A stretch of DNA of 64,000 nt, taken from positions 28,470 through 92,469 of IMG/VR virus record IMGVR_UViG_3300033145_002663. One strand, given 5' to 3'. This stretch comes from a virus. Position numbers and translations under genes: made by a program. Shown here piece by piece: positions 27,986-40,845 of this stretch (its first letter is position 1; the number at the start of each line of letters is the position of its first letter). Below the pieces are notes generated by a model. That model saw only the letters and a program-made list of their open reading frames with translations. It was not told the DNA's origin and did not search any database.

Positions 27986-29050
27986 CTACTGCAAATACTG
28001 CCCGTGCTCCGGGAACCACTGCGTGGTGTACGCTTTGTGCTTCATGAGCATGGGGTCTTTGCGGACGATGTCTTTCATTAATTTCATGGACCACTCTTTT
28101 TCCACCCGCATAGAATATGTTACGATGTTCTTAAAGTTGTCCTGATCGGCCATGGATGCCAGCGCGCAGGTCAGCGAGTACATTATGTCAGGCTTACCTG
28201 TGGGAACACCGGCGGTCTTGGGATGCGCCAGGATATTGTCCATGTCCGGCAGCTCGTTATAAACTTTCTCGAATGTCATGAACTCACCGGTGGGCCCCTT
28301 GCCGACCGTGCCGCTTAACAGCTCGAACTTTAAATCCTGCGGCGGGTGCTGCTTTAAAATGTCGGATGTAAATTCCCATGTCCTAGGCGAGGCGAACGCT
28401 TTTTCGTTTTTCTTTTCCGGGTTCTGAGAATCGTTCATCGGGTCAAAGTCCAACAGCAGCTGCGGAAAATTATGAATGAACGCAATCACCATTGGATAAA
28501 TATCAGCGCGGTACGCCCATGTAATCCAATCTTCCTGGCTTACATCGTAGTTAATATGAATGAGCCGGTTCGCCATGGGGGTGCTCATCCGGTGGGTGAA
28601 CGCTCTGTCAATTTCCCGGTTGCCGGCGGCTACGATCCACCAGCCAGGCGGCAGCTCGTACTCCCCGATTTTTCGATCAAGGAATAACTGAAGCAGGGCG
28701 TTCTGTGTGAGCGGCGGTGCTGAGGGCAGCTCATCAAAAAAGATGATGCCCTTGCCTTCCGTCGGCAGGAATGCCGGCGGACACCAGTGCGCTTTCTGGT
28801 CGCCGTTGATTGATGGCAACCCACGAATATCAACAGGATCGAGCAGCAATGCCCGAATATCCCTGAAGCCGTACAGTGCCTTTGCCTTTTGTTTGATTAA
28901 TTTGCAATCACCGCCCTCGGTGGCGTTAAGCCAGTCCACCAGTTGTTGGATGATACATGACTTTCCAACTCCCGGCGGGCCCCATAAAATGCAGGGCAGG
29001 TCGGCGTTTTTAAGAATCTTTAATGATTCAAATACTTGGGTTGGCCTCAT
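27986..29050 (-). CDS. MoxR/dynein-related AAA+ ATPase
   Basis: WGPPGVGKS, FFDEL, IVAAGNR, MANRL, SPRTW. Confidence 0.93.
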   Translation of the reverse strand: MRPTQVFESLKILKNADLPCILWGPPGVGKSCIIQQLVDWLNATEGGDCKLIKQKAKALYGFRDIRALLLDPVDIRGLPSINGDQKAHWCPPAFLPTEGKGIIFFDELPSAPPLTQNALLQLFLDRKIGEYELPPGWWIVAAGNREIDRAFTHRMSTPMANRLIHINYDVSQEDWITWAYRADIYPMVIAFIHNFPQLLLDFDPMNDSQNPEKKNEKAFASPRTWEFTSDILKQHPPQDLKFELLSGTVGKGPTGEFMTFEKVYNELPDMDNILAHPKTAGVPTGKPDIMYSLTCALASMADQDNFKNIVTYSMRVEKEWSMKLMKDIVRKDPMLMKHKAYTTQWFPEHGQYLQ

Positions 29051-29211: not shown

Positions 29212-29976
29212 TTAAATTGGTATTGGATTAACCTTCATGGTCTCTAAATTTACAAAGACACCATGATATTCGATTCGGGTTTCTCGAATTAGTTTCCAGA
29301 GTATGTCCATGCCGAGCATAGCCAGCGTGGAATTGATAAACAGATCCTGCCTGCCTAAAGCCTCGGCAAGGCTGCATGACGGCCCCTGATCTTCCTCGGT
29401 TGCCCGTTCAAACTCGTCATAGAACAATTCCAGCACGTGAGGGAGCTTTTGGGATTGACCATCGGGTTGCTTTATTTCGTCCCATGAGCCAAGCACGGCC
29501 TGACCGGTCTTCTGGGTGTTGCCAAAATCCATCCAGTACATTCCTTCGTTATACTCCTGCCCCCCTCGAACATCCTCGTCCCAAAGTTCCGCCAATGCGA
29601 TGCGTGCTTCAACAGTATCGACACAGGATATAATTATATTGGTGGGATCAATAACTTCGACGGTATCCCTGCAGTACGGGATGGCATTAGCTTCCCATGC
29701 CAGTCCGAAGAACCGGTTTACCCTTGTAATCAGAGCGACGGCTTTGTTCTGCTCGATTTCGGCGGGTGAGAACAATTGTCGCCCGAAGTTGGACTCGCTC
29801 ACGATGTCCGGATCGTATGCCTGAACATAGAACCCAGGGTGCCCCAGGCCCTGCAGGGCGAAGTCCATGCGGGCCAGGCAGGTTAGCACCTGCGATCCGG
29901 TACCGCCGCACCCTACCAGCGCGACGGTGATCGGGTGTGTGGGGTCTAATAAGTATTTGTCAGCGTAGTGAGTCAT
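29212..29976 (-). CDS. PRTRC system ThiF (E1-like) protein
   Basis: VGCGGTGS, D.DIVSESNFGRQLF, CVD, WMDFGN, PSCSLAEALGRQDLFIN. Confidence 0.93.
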   Translation of the reverse strand: MTHYADKYLLDPTHPITVALVGCGGTGSQVLTCLARMDFALQGLGHPGFYVQAYDPDIVSESNFGRQLFSPAEIEQNKAVALITRVNRFFGLAWEANAIPYCRDTVEVIDPTNIIISCVDTVEARIALAELWDEDVRGGQEYNEGMYWMDFGNTQKTGQAVLGSWDEIKQPDGQSQKLPHVLELFYDEFERATEEDQGPSCSLAEALGRQDLFINSTLAMLGMDILWKLIRETRIEYHGVFVNLETMKVNPIPI

Positions 29977-30659
29977 AATAAATCCCCCAGTACCTTTGCT
30001 TTTTTCTTGGAAACCATATGTTTTTTCATGGTTGTTTTAAGGGGGAACCGGCCTCCTTTAGTTATAAGTTTCGTCCAAATAGCATTCAGGTTCTTTCTTC
30101 CCTTGCAGGGATTGGCTACAAAATGAGAAAATTTGGAGTTGAAGAAAGCCGATTCCCAGCCACGGATAATCTGATCAATGGTTTTTCCTTGTATTCTTTT
30201 AGCACTCCCCATACACATATTCCCGTCCTCGTACCTGTTGTGAAACGGGGCATAGTACAGCTCGGTTTCGAGGGTAGGGCGGTCTTTGCCGACGTAGGCA
30301 AACACGGACAGGGTGCTTCCCGTAACCATAAAGATCAAACCGGGGCACCATGCCAGGCCGTCAGGAATGTTCAAGGCGTCCGAAAAATATAGCTGGCGAA
30401 TCATCGGCGGGTAATACCAGAGGGTTTTATGAACATCATGTGTTAATAAATTTACAGGGAACAACCCGGATTTATCCGGCTGATTTTTTTGCTGAAACAG
30501 GGTGATCAAACCTTTCAGGTTTTTCCATGTCAGAGGCTTCCCGCCCAGCAGGGTGCCGTCCCGTGTAATATCATGCAGTTCCGCATAGTAATCTGTATTG
30601 GTGTCCGCCTGATATATCATCAGGGATTTTCTTAGGTGAAAGTTAGAGTAATCCATCAA
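29973..30659 (-). CDS. PRTRC system protein B (prokaryotic E2-like)
   Basis: WY.PP..R.LYF, P.LIF, RPT..T.LY.APF.N...G.MCMG, WESAFFNSKFSH. Confidence 0.88.
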   Translation of the reverse strand: MMDYSNFHLRKSLMIYQADTNTDYYAELHDITRDGTLLGGKPLTWKNLKGLITLFQQKNQPDKSGLFPVNLLTHDVHKTLWYYPPMIRQLYFSDALNIPDGLAWCPGLIFMVTGSTLSVFAYVGKDRPTLETELYYAPFHNRYEDGNMCMGSAKRIQGKTIDQIIRGWESAFFNSKFSHFVANPCKGRKNLNAIWTKLITKGGRFPLKTTMKKHMVSKKKAKVLGDLL

Positions 30660-31879
30660 GCCTCCATTAATTTTTGAGAAACACCTGTCCCCATTTCAAA
30701 AAATTTCATAAGGTTATAAGGCCATTGAGGAACTTTCAGCCTGTTAATTTCCAGGCAATCCTTGCCGGTTAAGTAAAAGTTGTGCACAAACGGAATCATG
30801 CCGACACTATTGCAATATTCTTCAGAATCTCTTAAAACTTCCTCGCCCATATAATCATCCAATGACCATACGAATCGCATATAATTATATGGGTTCGCCC
30901 CATCAATGCCTCGTTCAAATTCATAGTCGAGAAAATCATTATAGTCCAAACCGCTTCTGATTAATTCATACCCCTTAAAGCACCAGCTAAAAATCTCTAC
31001 TTCAAGATCGTTTTCAGGGTTGAATTGAGCGAGCATTTGCGCAAAATCATCTATGGAAAAATTCAGCCGATTAATACAATTTTCATAGAAACCGGGTTCA
31101 CCTTTCATGTATTTATGAATCATGTCTGAATAATACGAAATTAAACCTTCATCCGGATCGTCCTCATATTTTTCTTCCCCGATGCGCTCATCAAAATAAT
31201 CAAGCATACGCTCATCCATATCCATGTGCGGCATATTGCAATGCTTGTTTAACAAGCTCATCATGGATAGAATTAAATTATAAATCTTACGATTTTGATT
31301 CTTTAGTTTTGGCAGGTATTCCAGGGAGAGCATATAAATATCATACTCACAGACATTAGAGTATTTATGGTAAACTCGAATCAAATAGTTTGGTGACTCG
31401 ATTATTTCCCATTGAAAATCATTCGGGATGAGTCCGTGCAGTTTTTCAAGGATCGTGCCCAGCACTTTCCAGGTTGGTGTGTTTTTATCTAAGTCCGGTA
31501 TGGAAATTTCATAGTTTTTTAAGATGTTTCGTATTTCCCTTATGGCTTGAAGTTGTTTTCTTTCTGAATCAAACATTCCGTAGTGCAATTTCGCACACAC
31601 CTCCAGCTCGTGCTTTACGGCAGGCACACCATGCAGGGCGGGGCAGGTAATCGCTCGGGCCGCTCTATGCCGGTCCGGTATGCCCTGTCGGAGTCCACCA
31701 GCAGGCGCCCGACACCGTTGTGCAGCATTTTGAGCTGTTTCTCCTTTTTTTTCCTGCATTTTTTCACCTTCAAATATTCTTCGAGTGTCATTGTCTGCTA
31801 CTCCAATCGGCATACTCATCAACGTCATCGTTCTGTTTGGTTTTAAAGCAGTACTCCGATAAAAAATGGAGGCCTTCAC
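30656..31879 (-). CDS. Probable PRTRC system protein F (start uncertain)
   Basis: Size and position between proteins C and B; N-terminal ~90 aa overlap other small ORFs. Confidence 0.5.
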   Translation of the reverse strand: MKASIFYRSTALKPNRTMTLMSMPIGVADNDTRRIFEGEKMQEKKGETAQNAAQRCRAPAGGLRQGIPDRHRAARAITCPALHGVPAVKHELEVCAKLHYGMFDSERKQLQAIREIRNILKNYEISIPDLDKNTPTWKVLGTILEKLHGLIPNDFQWEIIESPNYLIRVYHKYSNVCEYDIYMLSLEYLPKLKNQNRKIYNLILSMMSLLNKHCNMPHMDMDERMLDYFDERIGEEKYEDDPDEGLISYYSDMIHKYMKGEPGFYENCINRLNFSIDDFAQMLAQFNPENDLEVEIFSWCFKGYELIRSGLDYNDFLDYEFERGIDGANPYNYMRFVWSLDDYMGEEVLRDSEEYCNSVGMIPFVHNFYLTGKDCLEINRLKVPQWPYNLMKFFEMGTGVSQKLMEA

Positions 31880-32099
31880 CCACCGGGCGACCGCACCCGC
31901 AGGAGCAGAGCTTTATTTTCTTGGGATCCTTTTTTTCGTCCTTGTGCGCTCTGTAATAATCCCTGCATCTTTTACGGTGCATATCTTTGTTGCACTCCGG
32001 ACAATATTTTCGACGGGCAGCAAAGTGGTTTGCCACCTTAAATATCTTGCCGCACTTGGGGTTTTGGCATATTACGGTGAGCATGATAACTCCTGGCAC
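31788..32099 (-). CDS. Zinc-finger protein
   Basis: CQNPKC...YCPEC...CSCGC..EYC. Confidence 0.6.
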   Translation of the reverse strand: MPGVIMLTVICQNPKCGKIFKVANHFAARRKYCPECNKDMHRKRCRDYYRAHKDEKKDPKKIKLCSCGCGRPVGEGLHFLSEYCFKTKQNDDVDEYADWSSRQ

Positions 32100-32263
32100 T
32101 CATATTTCTTGAGCATTTTTATGGCGTTCCGGTAATTTTTAAACCTTAAGAAGTGACGCAGTTTTTTTAGCTGAGCCTGGGGAAAGCCAAAATAGCAATA
32201 CTGACGCGATTCCCAGGCCACCTCCAGCTCGCCGTATGAGTTGTAATTAATGATTTCTATCAT
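32072..32263 (-). CDS. KTSC-like small protein
   Basis: YNSYGELEV.W...Y.YFGFP resembles the KTSC pattern. Confidence 0.4.
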   Translation of the reverse strand: MIEIINYNSYGELEVAWESRQYCYFGFPQAQLKKLRHFLRFKNYRNAIKMLKKYECQELSCSP

Positions 32264-32370
32264 CTTTCACCACCTCATGAATTTTCCATGCGATATCCAT
32301 GAATTCAGCAAGGCGTTCACCCTGCTGATCCATGGATAAAAATTTAAAGGGCGGTATGTCTTTGATTTGA

Positions 32371-32577
32371 TTATAGAGCTTTTGCTCCATCTCTTGCCGG
32401 GTCATTCTCCTTTATTACCTCCTTAATAATATTAGCTAATGCTACTATAGCAGCACCCTGATTCCCAAAGTATTCAGCTACAGTTTTTCCATTGAAGGGT
32501 TGACCATCAAAGTGCTTTGCATCATTTGATGTATTAGTAATTATTAAATCTAAAACCCTAATCTTCCTCTCGTTCAT
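32371..32577 (-). CDS. Hypothetical protein
   Basis: Coupled ORF. Confidence 0.55.
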   Translation of the reverse strand: MNERKIRVLDLIITNTSNDAKHFDGQPFNGKTVAEYFGNQGAAIVALANIIKEVIKENDPARDGAKAL

Positions 32578-32759
32578 TCAGTCACACCTCCTCCATACCA
32601 GGCATGGACCGTGCCGGTTTCTTCGTCCACCAGAAGATCCAATGCCACGAAATTAAAGTGGCGAAACATTGCCAGTGCTTCGCCACTTAAACCTAATTTT
32701 TCGCCCATATCTTCCATGTACTCCCGATCCAGTTCAGCTTGAACGGATACTTTTCTCAT
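32574..32759 (-). CDS. Hypothetical protein
   Basis: Coupled ORF. Confidence 0.55.
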   Translation of the reverse strand: MRKVSVQAELDREYMEDMGEKLGLSGEALAMFRHFNFVALDLLVDEETGTVHAWYGGGVTE

Positions 32760-32761
32760 AC

Positions 32762-32980
32762 CTATCCTTTCATCCCCACGGATGTGGAAAACTTGTACTC
32801 GGCTACACCGTCCTTGATTTCCGGGCCGGTAACCGTGGCAGTGGTTAGTTCGGGGTAGGTGTTGCTGTAAAACTGCAACACGTCGTGCGGGGACATCTCA
32901 GGGGCGGGATCGGTGAGCGGTTCGCCCTTATGAAGAAACACCCGTTTTATATTCGTTACGTCTAATGCCATTTGAGCCAC
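32762..32980 (-). CDS. PRTRC system protein C (ubiquitin-like)
   Basis: RVF...L.DPAP.MSP.DV..FYS..YPELTTA.V.GP.....Y.F..SVG.KG with terminal Gly. Confidence 0.93.
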   Translation of the reverse strand: MAQMALDVTNIKRVFLHKGEPLTDPAPEMSPHDVLQFYSNTYPELTTATVTGPEIKDGVAEYKFSTSVGMKG

Positions 32981-32986
32981 CCCCTT

Positions 32987-33364
32987 TTATGTAAACAAAC
33001 CTGGTTGTTGACTGACAGCACCAGGTGTCTTAACCGGCGCGGCCTTCTTTTTCACGGTCTTGTCGGTCTTTTTCACCACGGCTCGCTTTTGTTTCTCGAC
33101 CAGATCGTTATACTCGTCTATGGAACTCATTAAACCATGGGTCGATCGGCCGGCTCTTGTCAGTTCATTAATGAACCCCTCGTCCAGTTCTTTGGGAGTT
33201 CCGGATATAACCAGCGGTTTAACCTCAATCTTATCCGCTTTCTCATCCGTCTGTTTGGGCAGCACGCTCACGGCGATTTTCCCATGAACAGGCTTGCTGA
33301 TAACCATTGTTATTGTTAACTTACCCGATTCTATGACCGGGTAAATTCGTTCAAAAAACTCCAT
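32987..33364 (-). CDS. PRTRC system protein E
   Basis: MEFF...VSVLPK...PLVISGTPKELDEGF. Confidence 0.9.
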   Translation of the reverse strand: MEFFERIYPVIESGKLTITMVISKPVHGKIAVSVLPKQTDEKADKIEVKPLVISGTPKELDEGFINELTRAGRSTHGLMSSIDEYNDLVEKQKRAVVKKTDKTVKKKAAPVKTPGAVSQQPGLFT

Positions 33365-33399
33365 GCGTTTCCTCCTTTTGGGCTAATAAAATACCTCTT

Positions 33400-33439
33400 T
33401 TATACTCCAAAGTGAACATAAGTCAAGTAAAAAATGACT
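33400..33439 (-). promoter_or_regulatory. Promoter for the PRTRC-led transcript
   Basis: Minus strand GTCATTTTTTACTTGACT-16 nt-TATAAA. Confidence 0.6.
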
Positions 33440-33472
33440 TTCAAGGAATATAAAAGAGGGGTTCGCTGATAT

Positions 33473-34777
33473 CTAACTGTTTATTCCCATGATAGCGGCT
33501 TTTAAATTTCCGCCTTCGAAAAACACGGGTTTCATCGAATCATCGGACAGCTTCAGGGTAACTTTTTTACCCACGTGCTTCAGGGCGTCCGCGACATAGC
33601 CCGTATTCAACCGGACGGTCATTTCGGGATCAACCTTGCCTTTGAGAAACGGTACGTCAAACCTGCGGTATTCTCCCTTGTCGTCATTGGCAGCCTCGAC
33701 GTTCATCACGCCGTTGAGTGTGAAATCCGCGACCTCGGAGATCAGCCCGACCTGTTTTACGACGTCTTTGAACACGTCGTTGTCAATCTCGATGCTGTGA
33801 ACGGTTTTCGTACCGTTCATAAATCCCATGTAATCCGGGAAATTAACGTCTTCATCCTTGGTCAACACGGTCAGCTTGCCGTAGGTAAATTGAGCCCGGC
33901 TTCCGTTCTTGTCGATCTTCATGGTAACATCTTTGTCCTTGGCAACTTTCGCCAAAGTTCCCAGAGCACCCGCCGGCAGCGTGATGTTTTGCTTCAGGTT
34001 GATCTGATGCTTCAGCATGTGCAAACGGTTACCGTTGGTGGACACCAGATTTTTCTCCTTGGCATCGAACATAACAACCGTTTGATGCGGCGAAGCGTCA
34101 TCTTTGTAATTGCAGGCATCCGTCAAGCTTCTCAGGTCATCACCCTTTATGGTGGCAACCTGAGTCCCGGTAAATTCTCGAGCATCAGGGAACTCTTTGA
34201 TGTCGGTCAGCGGGATGCGCTGAAAATGCTCCCCGATTGCCAGGGCCGTTGCGTTGACACCCTCGGTCAAAAAGTCCGATTTTTGCTCGAACTCCTCAAC
34301 ATGAAGATCAATAACATCCCCGGAATTCTCGGAATTCACGATCTTAAGCAGGTGGTCCGGGTCTACCAGGAACCGTTCGTCAACCTCGGTCTCGGGCGGC
34401 GGCAGTTTCTCCTCGGTCTGGGCGGCGGCTTCGCTGGCATTAAATATCGATTCAACCATATCAGCTTTCTTGGCCTTCTCGCCGAGATCGATGCCGGCGT
34501 ACTCGCACAGATCGACAAGCTGCCCGACCTTCAATGATTTCAGGTCTGTGGTAAGGTCTTCGTCCGGATGCACCACGGCGGGTTTTTCGCCAACGATTTT
34601 CTGCTTGTAATCAGTCAGCGAAATCGCTACCTCACCCCTGGTCTGCATATCCGTTGCGATGATCTTCTGGCTGGGGCCATCAATCAAAACTTTTCCCAGC
34701 TCCGGATAGGACTTACCATTTTTAAACCCTTTGACCATTTTCAGGCCCTCTACAAGGTCTTTCTTTGCTACTTTCAT
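33473..34777 (-). CDS. dnaN: DNA polymerase III beta sliding clamp homologue with inserted helical domain
   Basis: IIATD, EFP, LVSTNGNRLH, FPDY, LN.GY..DAL, KPV.F....AAIM; start after AGGAGG SD. Confidence 0.8.
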   Translation of the reverse strand: MKVAKKDLVEGLKMVKGFKNGKSYPELGKVLIDGPSQKIIATDMQTRGEVAISLTDYKQKIVGEKPAVVHPDEDLTTDLKSLKVGQLVDLCEYAGIDLGEKAKKADMVESIFNASEAAAQTEEKLPPPETEVDERFLVDPDHLLKIVNSENSGDVIDLHVEEFEQKSDFLTEGVNATALAIGEHFQRIPLTDIKEFPDAREFTGTQVATIKGDDLRSLTDACNYKDDASPHQTVVMFDAKEKNLVSTNGNRLHMLKHQINLKQNITLPAGALGTLAKVAKDKDVTMKIDKNGSRAQFTYGKLTVLTKDEDVNFPDYMGFMNGTKTVHSIEIDNDVFKDVVKQVGLISEVADFTLNGVMNVEAANDDKGEYRRFDVPFLKGKVDPEMTVRLNTGYVADALKHVGKKVTLKLSDDSMKPVFFEGGNLKAAIMGINS

Positions 34778-34875
34778 ATGCACCTCCTTTGAAATAAATT
34801 TACCGAACCATACAGCCCGGCCGGATCTTATGAATCCGTGAGAACCGTCGAATTTTTTCAACAGCTCTCATGGAG

Positions 34876-35229
34876 TCACACTCGGGTTAAATCTTTATAC
34901 TTCGTTTTTAATCGAGCTATCGTTCCTCGATCTGCCATACTGTAAAACGCCCTATCGCCGACGATCAGGTGTTCGTGTATTGTGACACCAACCGATTGCA
35001 GGGCGATCATCAGTTGAAAGGTGATAGAAAGATCTTCAGGCGACGGATCGGAACTTCCTGAAGGATGGTTGTGGCAAAAAATTACCGCTGCGGCTTGTTC
35101 CTGGGCAGTCAAAGGTTTCATAATATTATATAACTCCTCAGAGTTATTTACCTTTTGCCCTTTAATATTTTCCTTAACCATTGTTGCAAATTTACCGGAT
35201 ATCAAATCCTGATAGAACTTACAATTCAT
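34876..35229 (-). pseudogene. radC: RadC/JAB domain protein with internal in-frame deletion
   Basis: AAAVIFCHNHPSG..DPSPED..IT...HEHLIVG present; central segment (..G.....V.PREV..) absent. Confidence 0.75.
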
Positions 35230-35249
35230 GCTACCACCTCCTTTTTCGC

Positions 35250-35278
35250 TTGACATTATCAATCAAAAATATTAGATT
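35250..35278 (+). promoter_or_regulatory. Sigma70 promoter
   Basis: TTGACA-17-TAGATT. Confidence 0.6.
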
Positions 35279-35961: not shown

Positions 35962-36156
35962 AATTTTCTCCTCCTTTTTTTTCCAACATTAATAATTAAA
36001 AAACCTTGACATATAAAACTAATGTGGGGTATATAAGAACCATGACATGCCAATTCCCACATACACAAATTGCTAAAACCACCCACATTGTAGTACCTTT
36101 TTCGCAATTCTCCAAAAAAAATTCAAAAAAATAACACCTCGTAACTAATTAAAATC

Positions 36157-36462
36157 ATTCAATGAGTAAGATGATTAACAACTAGTAAGAACTTTTGGCC
36201 TTGTTCTTACTCACTAGTATCCTTTATTATTTCCAATGGTTATCTCCACCGGGGACACTCGTGCAGAAAAAAGTTCTTACTCACCTTTTTTCTCTTATAT
36301 TTCCAATGGTTATCTATTGATTTTTTTCTATGAGTAATAAGTATAGGGGGAAAAAGTTTTCAAAAAAGTGAGATCCTAATTACTCGGGTTAGTCATCAAT
36401 GATAACAGGGGTTTACAGCGAAAAAGTTCTTACTCACACGTTAATCATGTTACTCATTGAAT
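36157..36462. repeat. Iteron-like TTACTCA(C/T) cluster bounded by ~40-bp inverted arms (candidate origin)
   Basis: 36157-36196 vs reverse complement of 36422-36462; GTTCTTACTCAC x3; TATTTCCAATGGTTATCT x2. Confidence 0.7.
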
Positions 36463-36928
36463 AATTTCCATGGGTTAAGTGTGTTTTTCGCTGCTTTTTT
36501 GATTATTGGTCAAGAAAATTCAACGAAAAACAGCGAAAAAATGCCCTATATTCCCAAGAGAGAATATATAGGCAAGAAATCTGTCAAGCCTGACCCTTTT
36601 TCGCAGGCACGTTATTTGCATAGAGCTAAAAAATGAGTTTTGGTGCAATGAATTTCCAGACGTGAAAAGCCATGTATGAGATGGCCAAAGCATAGAAAAT
36701 TTTCTCCATCAATTTTAAAATCATCATATTTTTTTCCACCCCCTTTATAGAAAAATAAACTTCATAGAAATTCCACCCAGGGTGAGCATGGAATTTCTAT
36801 CAAACCTATTTTTTCCCTCTGCATTTCGGACATAATTTTTCGTGCTCCCTGTTTATAAAGATCACACAAGTTTTCCGTCTGCACTTTTCACATTTCATGG
36901 CAGTCCCCCTTCCGTGCGTACGCACGCA

Positions 36929-37000: not shown

Positions 37001-37942
37001 TTATACCACGGCTTCTTTTTTCTGAACTCGAAATTCATTGAGGGTTTCGAGTAAATTGCTTGCGATTTTCGCCATCTCTTTTGCCGTTCTTTCAATCTCC
37101 GGCAATTTCTGCTTGTTGCAGAGGATGAGCATTTTCGACTCGCCATTGGTAAATGGCGACTGTGAAAATTTCTCCATCTGATTCTTGATCTGACCAAATA
37201 ACACCTTTGCAGCCTTGCGAGTTTTCTCGTCTGCTCCGTCTTTAATCTCCGCCCACAAACTCATCTGGTTATACTCGGCTAAATAGGCATCAACTTTTTT
37301 CAACATCACATCAGCGGTTCTGCCGTTTTTCGCCCATGAATAAGCCTTCTCGAATTGACTCGGCTTAAGAGAAGCGATTTTCCTTGCCACAGGTTTCGGC
37401 AGTCGGCCTTGATCCCACTCTCTTTTCATGAGTGTCGGCAGTTGCAGAATAGGGAGATCCGCCTCGATCATAGCTACGGATTTTCCAAAAGCCTTCGCAA
37501 CTTTTTCCATCGGAAGCTCATGCTCATTCAAAGCTCTGTCAATGGCTTCCAAGGTTTCCAGCGGATCCATGTTTTTCCTGACCAGGTTATCCATGATTTG
37601 ATTCAGAAAAACATCGGCCTGAGTCATGGGTTTTTCGTAGACCCTCGCCAAGATGTAAGTTTTTCCATCTTCGATCTTGAAACCATGACGGGGTTGACCA
37701 TCCCAAAATTCCTTAATAAACATTGAAACAGCAGTCAGCCGACATTCTCCATTCATCAGCATTTGCCATCCCGGAGTCTTGGGGTGCGGAAAAACATCAA
37801 TAGCGTTTTTCATGCCTTCATTCGCTATGGAAACCGCAAGTTCGCCCTTGATGTAAGACTGGGGCTTGTTTTTTCTTGGCTGATTTGGGTCAGCCTCGAT
37901 GTAATCGACATTGACATATTCATACTTGTAATCTTCTTGCAT
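37001..37942 (-). CDS. parB: ParB/Spo0J-family protein
   Basis: DPNQPRK, LA.SI...G, NGECRL.A, Q.MDNL.R.NMDPLE, HTH VAKAFGKS. Confidence 0.9.
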   Translation of the reverse strand: MQEDYKYEYVNVDYIEADPNQPRKNKPQSYIKGELAVSIANEGMKNAIDVFPHPKTPGWQMLMNGECRLTAVSMFIKEFWDGQPRHGFKIEDGKTYILARVYEKPMTQADVFLNQIMDNLVRKNMDPLETLEAIDRALNEHELPMEKVAKAFGKSVAMIEADLPILQLPTLMKREWDQGRLPKPVARKIASLKPSQFEKAYSWAKNGRTADVMLKKVDAYLAEYNQMSLWAEIKDGADEKTRKAAKVLFGQIKNQMEKFSQSPFTNGESKMLILCNKQKLPEIERTAKEMAKIASNLLETLNEFRVQKKEAVV

Positions 37943-38024
37943 AATTTTTTCCCTCCCATTTTATTGGTTGTTGTGAAAATACCTGAGCCGAGCAAACATT
38001 GGCTCAGCGATTGCCACAACTGAG

Positions 38025-38059
38025 AGGAAAAGAAACGCCGGGCTGGTTAAGCCCGGCGT
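38025..38059 (-). terminator. Intrinsic terminator or attenuator upstream of parB
   Basis: ACGCCGGGCT-TAACC-AGCCCGGCGT then TTCTTTT. Confidence 0.7.
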
Positions 38060-38219
38060 GGGAAAGCACAAATTTAAGGTTGAAAATTTTCCAAGCCGCT
38101 GAATATTTTCCATGAGATTTTATCCCGCAAATCCGTATAGCTAACAATCCCTGCCACATGGATTTAAAAAACCCATTGCCTAATTGAAAGCAAGATAAGC
38201 AGTTCCACCTCACTTCCAA

Positions 38220-38870
38220 AATTCAGCCCGGATGTTACCATCCAGTATGTGGCCGGAGAAAATATCCAACCGCCCAATATTAACCCACTATGAGCACGGA
38301 CTGACCTTTTAGCGTGTTTCAGCTCACGGAGGATCTTTCATCCACAGTCATTGGCCAGACATAGACCGCATTTCTAACCGTTAGCGTGGTAGGCACACGG
38401 AGGGACTTTGCCCCACAGTCAGCCCGCTGTTTGTGAGGGGATCAGAGGACTACCACCCCACCAATCAAAAATACCAGGATAACCGATTGGCAAATTATCC
38501 ATCCTGCAATCTGTGCGCATAGAAGGCGCACCGCTCGATCCGTATTTCAGGCTCCCTTGCGACCATGATGTTACAGGACGGCATATCGGTCGCATTGGTA
38601 TATCCAAGTGTTAGCGTCATGGCAGTTGGGCTTTATTCAGCCCGCAGCTCCGCAATACAGCATCCCGGCTCCGTGGCTTAATAATCAAGCTCACAAAATA
38701 TGCCGATCACACGTTACGGCAATCAAGCCATAGTTGATGAAGGGCATCCTATACACAGCGAGCCTCAAGCCGTGTGTAGGATCTTAGCCAATGAGTTTTA
38801 TGGGCGACAAGCTGACTGGCAGGTTAGGCCGCCAGGATGAGGCCGGTTGCTCTATGGCCGTTCAAGTTGT
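38220..38870 (-). ncRNA. Candidate large structured RNA (unassigned family)
   Basis: No credible ORF, GC-rich, more than 10 hairpins with G-U pairs and a GUAA tetraloop on the minus strand, duplicated junction module with compensatory changes. Confidence 0.55.
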
Positions 38871-38875
38871 TCGGG

Positions 38876-38917
38876 TGTCCAGAAAGTGAACACCACTGTC
38901 CAGAAAGTGAACACCAC
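38876..38917 (+). repeat. Perfect 21-bp tandem repeat x2
   Basis: TGTCCAGAAAGTGAACACCAC twice. Confidence 0.95.
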
Positions 38918-39153
38918 TGTCTCAAGTTAAAATGATACATTTATGTCCCGAATAATCTGATACAGTTTTGTATCGGTGAGACATGTCTCAAGTTATACAC
39001 ACTTGTGTCTCAAATTATTGAGGCAGAAGTGTATCAGCATAATGAGACAGGTGTCTCGGATTAGATGAAACAATAGTGTCTCAATTAAAATGAGACGGTT
39101 TGAAATAAATCATCTTTAAAATAGTGTCTTAAAAATTAATGAGACACTATTTT
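38918..39153. repeat. Array of TGTCTCA-N6/8-TGAGACA dyads
   Basis: Seven dyads starting 38918, 38944, 39006, 39030, 39052, 39077, 39125 plus half sites at 38969-38990. Confidence 0.85.
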
Positions 39154-39437
39154 AGAAAAAATTTATTAAATAATCGGTTTTGCCTGAAAATTTTTCAGGG
39201 TTTCAATGTTAACAAGTTTTTTTGTTCTGAAAACTTTTGACTTTGATTTACGAATAACGGTTACTTTTTTACGGTTCATAAAACACCTATTTTTTAAAGG
39301 TTAAATATCTTTTCAAATATATAGACGTTTCAAATTCAAAAAAATTACAAAAAAGATTTATACTGATATTTAATTAATTATCAATAGGTTATAATGATTT
39401 ATTAATAAACTGATAAAAATAAATAGAAAAATAATGT

Positions 39438-39465
39438 TTGACAAGATTAATCATACATATAGAAT
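39438..39465 (+). promoter_or_regulatory. Strong sigma70 promoter
   Basis: TTGACA-16-TAGAAT with A-rich UP region. Confidence 0.7.
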
Positions 39466-39507
39466 GTATATCAATATCAACCATTAAATAGAAAGGAAGG
39501 TGTAACC

Positions 39508-40845
39508 ATGCAATTAGTTATTAAGGAAGCATACAACCCAGAAAGTAAAGAGTATGAACCAAAAGTTTTTGACAAGAGGGATTTATACAACCCAGAACCA
39601 AAAACAGAAAAGGAAGGTGTAACCATGCAAACAAAACAACTATTAAGGCTGTATTCACAAAAAATGAGTCAGTTCCAAAAATTGAGATTGCAGGATACAA
39701 AAGGCATAAGTCAAAAACAGATAATCATGCAAGATATTTTGAATGAAAGTATGATTAAATTACTTGCATTATCTGAAAAGGAAACCATTAAAAATGTTGA
39801 ACATCTTTTTAATAAGACGTTACGCAATACCACTATTGATAAAATGAGATCGTTTGAAACGTCTGAAAACATCATTGAATTTTTTGACTCATACAATGAT
39901 ATTGAAAAGAGTACGGATTTCACGCAATACAATAATTACAAAGGACTATTAAAACACGTTTTGAAAAAACTTAAAAAGAAAGTCAATAAAAAACTTTTTG
40001 TCCTGTATCATGTCAAAGGTATGAGTCAAAAAGAAATTGCTTTAAAATTATATCCAAATTTAACAGAAAATAATGCAAGGGTTAAAACTAACAGAACCAT
40101 AAAAGCATTGAATCAAAAATTATACCGAATGAAGTTAAAAAATCTTTACAGAACTGAATTTGCTACACCTTGCACGACACAGGATAAAAAACTTCCAAAA
40201 TACAAAGATCATACACCCAGTAACGCAGTAAAAATAAAACGTGAATACGGACCTTTTAAAGGGCAAGTGGCATACCTTTACAAGTCTGATCTGCTTGACA
40301 AGGAAACTTTTGACAAGGAAACCTTTGATAATAACTTAAAACTTGCTAATAATAGAGGATATTTGGCAACTAAAACAAGTCAAGGTTATACAAGTGATAA
40401 CCATATAACATACGATTTCACAAAGTACGCTGGGATTGCAGTTAAAAATAACTTTTATATAAATCATTCTTTTACAAGTACGCCTTTTGGAGTGAAGGCC
40501 ATACCTTTAGTTAATAGCATAAGCACTTATAAAAAGTGGGTAACAGATAACCTTTATGAAAAGAGTATGATATTTAAAAAACAAGACGTTACTGTCAAGG
40601 GTTATGATCGAATAGGTTGTTTGTACTCGAATAATCAGGCAAGTATTGACAAGTTTTATAATCAGGTTACACCTAAAAGGATTGTAATTAAAACAATTAA
40701 CAAGGGTTATCTGCTTTATAGCCATAAGATTTCAAAGGATATAACCCTGACTCATAACAAAACAAAAGAACATTACACGGTAACCATACCAAATAGTCAA
40801 AGGGTTGTTGAATCAACTAACTTTAAATTGAGATATGCGGAATAG
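39508..40845 (+). CDS. ECF-type sigma factor with long C-terminal extension
   Basis: Region 2 QDILNESMIKLL...LFNKTLRNTTIDKMR; region 4 LFVLYHVKGMSQKEIALKL...NARVKTNRTIKAL. Confidence 0.7.
   Translation: MQLVIKEAYNPESKEYEPKVFDKRDLYNPEPKTEKEGVTMQTKQLLRLYSQKMSQFQKLRLQDTKGISQKQIIMQDILNESMIKLLALSEKETIKNVEHLFNKTLRNTTIDKMRSFETSENIIEFFDSYNDIEKSTDFTQYNNYKGLLKHVLKKLKKKVNKKLFVLYHVKGMSQKEIALKLYPNLTENNARVKTNRTIKALNQKLYRMKLKNLYRTEFATPCTTQDKKLPKYKDHTPSNAVKIKREYGPFKGQVAYLYKSDLLDKETFDKETFDNNLKLANNRGYLATKTSQGYTSDNHITYDFTKYAGIAVKNNFYINHSFTSTPFGVKAIPLVNSISTYKKWVTDNLYEKSMIFKKQDVTVKGYDRIGCLYSNNQASIDKFYNQVTPKRIVIKTINKGYLLYSHKISKDITLTHNKTKEHYTVTIPNSQRVVESTNFKLRYAE

Follow-up and report, generated by a model that had tools for sequence, protein, structure and literature searches.

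The window analysed here is a 64,000-nt stretch of a tailed phage (IMG/VR record IMGVR_UViG_3300033145_002663, positions 28,470 to 92,469), an assignment that follows from the terminase and head genes in its right arm. Its leftward operon begins with a parB-like gene (37001–37942, minus strand), recognized by Pfam HTH_ParB, a PHROG ParB-like match, and its homologues, after which come small ORFs, RadC, a clamp-like gene, and a PRTRC cassette. The PRTRC cassette (Pfam PRTRC_E), the RadC-like JAB protein, and the clamp-like protein occupy 29212–35262 of this tailed-phage sequence. Divergent from the parB-like gene lies a sigma-factor-like gene (39508–40845), assigned from its domain and family match, and between the two there is a gene-free interval of 1.57 kb. 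Read in the minus sense, this interval comprises an AT-rich predicted promoter region, a repeat array, a G+C-richer stretch without credible ORFs, a terminator, a long hairpin, and the ribosome-binding site of parB. The repeat array (38876–39153) contains a perfect 21-bp duplication and, after it, dyads with a 7-nt arm; upstream of the arrays, a very basic 37-aa ORF (39166–39279, minus strand) is preceded by a plausible ribosome-binding site.

The terminator (38034–38060, minus strand) is of the strong intrinsic type, with a 10-bp stem containing 8 G-C pairs, a T-run, and a folding energy of −20.3 kcal/mol, and it is the strongest in the 20-kb leftward arm downstream. In the 90 nt that separate it from parB, no sigma-70-like promoter was read, and no motif of this stretch is repeated elsewhere in the genome. 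Since no promoter was read before parB, the operon seems to need transcription through the RNA described below and through its terminator. The long hairpin (37969–38021, minus strand), with arms of about 20 nt, extends between the terminator and the parB ribosome-binding site; it may act as a site of processing or in the control of translation, or be a dyad in the DNA.

Within the G+C-richer stretch, a repeat search of the window identified a family of two units of approximately 48 nt on the minus strand, copy 1 at 38421–38375 and copy 2 at 38350–38302, with a start-to-start distance of 71 nt. Each contains two hairpins, P2 and P3, placed at 38402–38414 and 38385–38399 in copy 1 and at 38331–38343 and 38313–38328 in copy 2, and a linker hairpin, Hc (38353–38367), lies between the units. 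Pairwise alignment of the copies gives a mean column identity of 86%, a resemblance far above chance; the 5′ flank, the P2–P3 junction, the P3 stem, and the 3′ junction are invariant, while the loops vary. These observations agree with the original prediction, which had described two look-alike minus-strand units with fixed junctions and variable loops, as well as compensatory changes in P2, where 2 of the 4 pairs are indeed altered on both sides between the copies. A covariance model was built from the two copies of the window, L084 (introduced below) not being used in its building. It recovered no further copy in the 92.5-kb virus record holding the window, and it matched one unit in an independent phage at the syntenic place (E about 1e-4; 4e-5 to 1.5e-4), so that the search for homologues suggested with the prediction returned one. 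This match corresponds to copy 2, which is the conserved unit.

The phage in question, IMG/VR 3300033150_001833 (L084/L115), was reached by collecting ParB homologues, aligning them, and fetching their loci; its ParB is 45% identical to that of the window and its sigma-like protein 31%. Both phages share the order sigma-like gene, repeat array, RNA, terminator, long hairpin, parB-like gene, small ORFs, RadC, and clamp-like gene, the L084 locus ending before the point at which the PRTRC cassette could be compared. The matched unit lies at L084 3573–3621. With nhmmer, the non-coding region of the window aligned to L084 3263–3973 (E 4e-29), and DNA identity reached 76% in the module domain versus 53% in parB. 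Within the intergenic interval, blastn between both phages picked out only 38221–38350. The array of L084 (2950–3100) is formed by about eleven head-to-tail copies of a 13-bp unit that is unrelated in sequence to the array of the window; in both phages the array separates the sigma-like gene from the RNA and probably provides operator or centromere-like sites in the DNA. The long hairpin has a counterpart of different sequence at L084 3918–3963. Downstream of parB, an inverted repeat block (36152–36213 and 36421–36477) is 80–87% identical to L115 5011–5072 and so constitutes a further conserved non-coding element of the leftward arm.

Further relatives were sought in loci anchored on ParB, comprising 75 from metagenomes, 30 from IMG/VR, and 26 from genomes, to which the covariance model and nhmmer profiles were applied. 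Among these loci only L084/L115 has the RNA; in L008, whose ParB is 44% identical, it was not seen within 3.5 kb. Two ParB homologues are closer still, P0002 and P0003 (69% and 66%); the loci searched are those of other homologues. Pattern scans of IMG/VR with module and block motifs returned chance matches in coding sequence or the one relative contig, and a BLAST search of the region against phage and plasmid collections yielded no match. Within the collections searched, the RNA family is rare. The nearest ParB among genome contigs is only 30% identical, too distant to point to a host.

The two units form part of a structured non-coding core of approximately 0.7–0.8 kb (38100–38835, minus strand), defined by homology, folding, and the lack of a conserved ORF. 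The folding z-score is −5.0 on the parB strand, with none of 20 shuffles as good, versus −1.2 on the opposite strand; the corresponding region of L084 has a z-score of −3.25, and the hairpin energies, added together, favour the parB strand by about 20 kcal/mol in both phages. When the two phages are compared by coordinates, at least 12 hairpins stand at matching places. The stem sequences of H1, H5, H7, Hc, and He differ largely between them, and H3, Ha, and Hf display wobble-compatible single changes. Four of these hairpins precede the units, namely H1 (38782–38746), H3 (38673–38645), H5 (38593–38559), and H7 (38531–38513). On the 3′ side, He (38272–38295; L084 3628–3651) combines a conserved loop core with a covarying stem, of which three different versions are found in the window, in L084, and in a relative from sequencing run X8 that has a loose end at 38298. 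It is followed by Hf (38251–38271), whose G-U pairs are sensible on the minus strand only (−7.7 versus −2.7 on the opposite strand), and by Hg (38228–38245), an invariant 7-bp hairpin with a GNRA tetraloop located inside the longest identical block (25 nt). The strand-specific folding, along with the double changes in P2 and P3 discussed below, supports the earlier proposal of a structured RNA read from the minus strand. No second copy of the RNA was found elsewhere in either phage genome.

Smaller differences between the phages were also recorded. In its 5′ part, the RNA of the window has an additional 5-bp hairpin (38626–38643) that is absent from L084, where it corresponds to a 13-nt gap; optional stems are typical of structured RNAs. 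A 12-nt conserved block just before the terminator region (38086–38097) is partly duplicated in L084 (3785–3796 and 3821–3831), the duplication flanking a 49-nt insertion, and Hg and the terminator are separated by nearly the same distance despite the insertion (167 nt in the window, 168 nt in L084). A protein-coding region was considered and rejected, as the indels between the phages measure 22, 19, 13, 7, and 5 nt, none a multiple of three, and the region holds no ORF shared by both phages. Since TIGR-Tas arrays can adjoin parB-like genes (PMC12045711), a guide array of this kind was also considered. Such an array consists of many 36-nt units with two 9-nt spacers beside a Nop-domain protein (PMC12045711); the present locus has only two units, of 47–49 nt, with variable parts of 2–8 nt, and no Nop domain occurs among the neighbouring genes of either phage, so this candidate was rejected as well.

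The strand asymmetry bears on whether the element acts as RNA or as DNA. A single-strand origin or other ssDNA fold would likewise present a strand-specific set of hairpins, and the repeated units could alternatively be sites for ParB or the sigma-like protein, a thought encouraged by the adjoining repeat arrays and parB-like gene. The units, however, are direct repeats rather than dyads, and direct repeats whose stems change in sequence poorly fit a DNA recognition site. The GNRA loop and the many G-U pairs speak for RNA, the region belongs to a transcription unit closed by a terminator, relatives occur in RNA-library contigs, and the real candidates for DNA sites are the arrays at 38876–39153. 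A function at the DNA level is therefore considered very improbable, and the following discussion treats the region as RNA.

The internal architecture of the units was assessed by comparing three sequences, among which P2 and P3 each show two pairs with changes on both sides; the observed covariation score of P2 and P3 was reached by 8 of 500 shuffles of these sequences, and slid controls scored 0–1. In copy 2, the P3 stem has 2 of its 4 pairs altered on both sides in L084 (3595–3611), and the P2 stem has its third pair altered on both sides and its fourth unpaired. In copy 1, the outer pair of P3 is altered on both sides in L084 (3507–3521). The linker hairpin Hc carries two double changes relative to its counterpart at L084 3529–3551. 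Pairing of both P2 and P3 is hence maintained in the second phage, consistent with the covariation originally noted between the copies. Full-length sequences come from two phages only, too few for a statistical covariation test such as R-scape, and RNAalifold, which on two sequences favours consistent pairs by design, was not counted as independent support.

The closing stem behaves differently. The units had been proposed to fold as three-way junctions, but P1, the stem that would close each of them, shows zero double changes and has two unpaired cells in L084, where the duplex between the equivalent flanks is weak and interrupted; the junction model is accordingly not supported. The original prediction also envisaged an alternative long-range pairing and, on that basis, a switch. 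The pairing does exist in the window, where 38427–38417 can form 11 pairs with 38306–38296 (−19.0 kcal/mol) and the helix appears in minimum-energy folds of the window sequence; in L084, however, it is interrupted and reaches only −9.9 kcal/mol. Its 5′ arm, moreover, overlaps the local helix Ha (38422–38450, minus strand), just upstream of copy 1, which is conserved in both phages (−11.1 and −10.3 kcal/mol) with one wobble-to-Watson–Crick change. The alternative helix is thus specific to the window and competes for a strand used by a conserved one, so the comparison does not favour a switch.

Nor is the tandem layout itself conserved, as alignment of both phages shows that unit 1 of L084 lacks P2 through a 22-nt gap. 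Parts of the stretch are also contained in public sequencing runs, including sediment and aquatic RNA libraries from two studies, and these third lineages provide independent views of the module. In relatives, a variant at 38341 makes the third pair of P2 in copy 2 G-U instead of A-U, and variants at 38365 and 38355 co-occur in contigs of two studies, keeping the third pair of Hc. A relative from a sediment RNA library, with a loose end at 38349, has a single-hairpin unit 1 and is missing the linker hairpin; its unit 1 arose by a deletion different from that of L084 and keeps the P2 loop with the same outer 4-bp stem closing it, P2 itself being only partial. Unit 1 of the window has both the P3 loop of the L084 type and the P2 loop of the sediment relative, which suggests that the ancestor probably had the complete two-hairpin form and that two independent reductions followed. 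Each reduction retained the invariant flanks and one closing stem, pointing to a constraint on the flanks plus a hairpin and not on a three-way junction. Judging from these comparisons, the units do not appear to be self-contained three-way-junction sensors; they are better described as paralogous modules within one long RNA, each with invariant single-stranded flanks and two short hairpins with covarying stems. The presence of relatives in RNA-library contigs is compatible with transcription but does not prove it, and contig depths and uncovered parts (37810–38082 and above 38811) were excluded as evidence of ends or abundance.

These findings weigh directly on the proposal that the units are tandem ligand-binding aptamers, i.e., a riboswitch, or a self-cleaving ribozyme. 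Invariant junction strands combined with covarying stems are typical of aptamer cores, a terminator lies downstream, and alternative pairings are possible in the window; against this, P1 and the alternative pairing are not conserved, unit 1 of the relatives loses either hairpin, and the terminator is separated from the units by 240 nt and three conserved hairpins. A search of the 64-kb window with the 4227 models of Rfam 15 gave nothing at or above the gathering threshold, and when E values up to 10 were admitted for 37900–39600 and for L084 3100–3990, only terminator-like or chance matches appeared, all outside the modules. These matches included no riboswitch or ribozyme model, and the junction strands contain no hammerhead core motifs. 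Taken together, a sensor or ribozyme of this kind seems quite unlikely; the invariant strands may bind a protein or the polymerase.

The modules could also be nut-like sites, in which case P2 would be the analogue of boxB, the invariant 3′ strand the analogue of boxA, and a phage antitermination protein would bind both. P2 consists of a short stem and an A-rich loop of five bases, the linear flanks do not vary among the instances, the units are situated between the predicted early promoter region and the first terminator, and the basic 37-aa ORF upstream (39279–39166) could be thought of as a candidate protein. In lambda, the five-base boxB loop folds like a GNRA tetraloop, with G first and A last, and is bound by an arginine-rich peptide. 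The first base of the P2 loop is G in copy 2 and L084 but C in copy 1 and a relative, which misfits such a fold. In addition, L084 does without the P2 of unit 1, the small ORF matched no family and had no clear counterpart in that phage, and no N-like protein was found among the family matches. The surrounding 700 nt of conserved structure would also be left unexplained. A nut-like function is, on this evidence, an unlikely account of the modules.

As in the put and canT systems, an RNA placed between a predicted early promoter region and terminators heads a long operon in both phages. Because this layout resembles RNA-centred processive antitermination, we rank first the proposal that the RNA is a cis-acting leader controlling read-through of the terminator at 38060–38034, a reading that we hold tentatively and at somewhat less than an even chance. 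In such a scheme, the RNA of approximately 0.7–0.8 kb would be the untranslated head of the leftward operon of the phage, read from the minus strand. The nascent leader would then act in cis on the transcribing RNA polymerase, either alone or with a protein that binds the invariant strands of the modules, and the polymerase would read through the terminator and transcribe the long operon, which is the mode of action of HK022 put, Bacillus EAR, and Tn916 canT. The repeat, the covarying hairpins and their strand, the terminator, the synteny, and a conservation higher than in the adjacent gene are observed; the transcription start, the action in cis, and antitermination are what we infer from them.

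Several points tell against a leader. The RNA is far larger than put or EAR, it has no sequence similarity to any known antiterminator RNA, and the terminator could simply end a separate RNA. At the place of the terminator, L084 has a hairpin of different sequence with an energy of −21.0 kcal/mol and a short, weak U-tract, so that read-through there may need no help. The main alternative is a stand-alone large structured RNA of the GOLLD or ROOL sort, ended by the terminator and functioning in trans or as a structural or assembly RNA, in which the modules would be internal repeats making tertiary or protein contacts. Its size, the many covarying hairpins, the optional hairpins, the GNRA loop, and the conserved loop cores are all in keeping with such an RNA, as are the strong terminator on its 3′ side and the relatives among RNA-library contigs; phages are, furthermore, known to have large ornate RNAs (10.1101/2024.12.08.627333). 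On the other hand, Rfam gives no match to GOLLD, ROOL, or other such families, the U-tract of the terminator is weak in L084, and the operon, with no promoter read before parB, seems dependent on transcription through the RNA. We regard this alternative as possible, yet doubtful. A broader proposition is that the RNA represents a new class of ornate phage RNA of about 0.7 kb, assembled in part from repeated two-hairpin modules with invariant strands, which needs no protein of its own and either reprograms RNA polymerase for processive antitermination of a 22-kb operon or forms a higher-order RNA particle like those of ROOL and GOLLD; this may be the case, although we consider it well short of an even chance.

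Comparison with known systems places these readings in context. The put RNA of phage HK022 measures about 70 nt, forms two stem-loops downstream of early promoters, needs no protein, and is present in two similar copies per genome (PMC9378689). It resembles the present module in its two adjacent stem-loops with conserved unpaired bases and in its position downstream of an early promoter and before terminators. Each put site (putL or putR), however, stands alone, with one copy in each of two early operons, whereas the units described here are in tandem within a fold of approximately 700 nt, and the likeness is one of predicted structure and position, with no sequence similarity found. The canT RNA of Tn916 acts in cis and processively, with active fragments of about 340–450 nt, upstream of terminator T1 and a long operon, and conAn2 and EAR are grouped with it (PMC11658703). 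Like canT, conAn2 of pLS20, and EAR of Bacillus, the phage RNA would be an orientation-specific leader of several hundred nucleotides before a strong terminator gating a long operon; the function of canT has been established by genetics, while the present parallel concerns layout, with no homology found, and here the element belongs to a tailed phage with its own sigma-like factor.

The lambda nut site, with its boxA and boxB, offers a short hairpin with a five-base A-rich loop and a conserved linear element in an early leader, but it differs from the modules in the order of these elements and in loop sequence, whose first base is not always G here. The tandem glycine riboswitch and other three-way-junction aptamers likewise place two similar units side by side, with conserved junction strands and covarying stems; in the phage RNA, by contrast, the closing stem is not maintained, one unit can be cut down to a single hairpin, and there is no Rfam riboswitch match. 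GOLLD and ROOL are similar in size class (0.6–0.8 kb), phage location, number of hairpins, and optional insertions, and differ in that their covariance models do not match and that the present RNA heads an operon, being followed by a terminator and a seemingly dependent gene. The striking tandem unit belongs to a larger RNA, and its junction model has failed against the relative phage. To our knowledge, RNA-only or RNA-centred antiterminators are few (put, EAR, canT, and conAn2), each having come from genetics in one model element. If the RNA described here functions in trans, it would represent a large phage RNA of a new kind; if it is an antiterminator, it would add to these systems a structurally distinct example, a conserved and covarying 0.7-kb leader RNA before a gate terminator in uncultured sediment phages.
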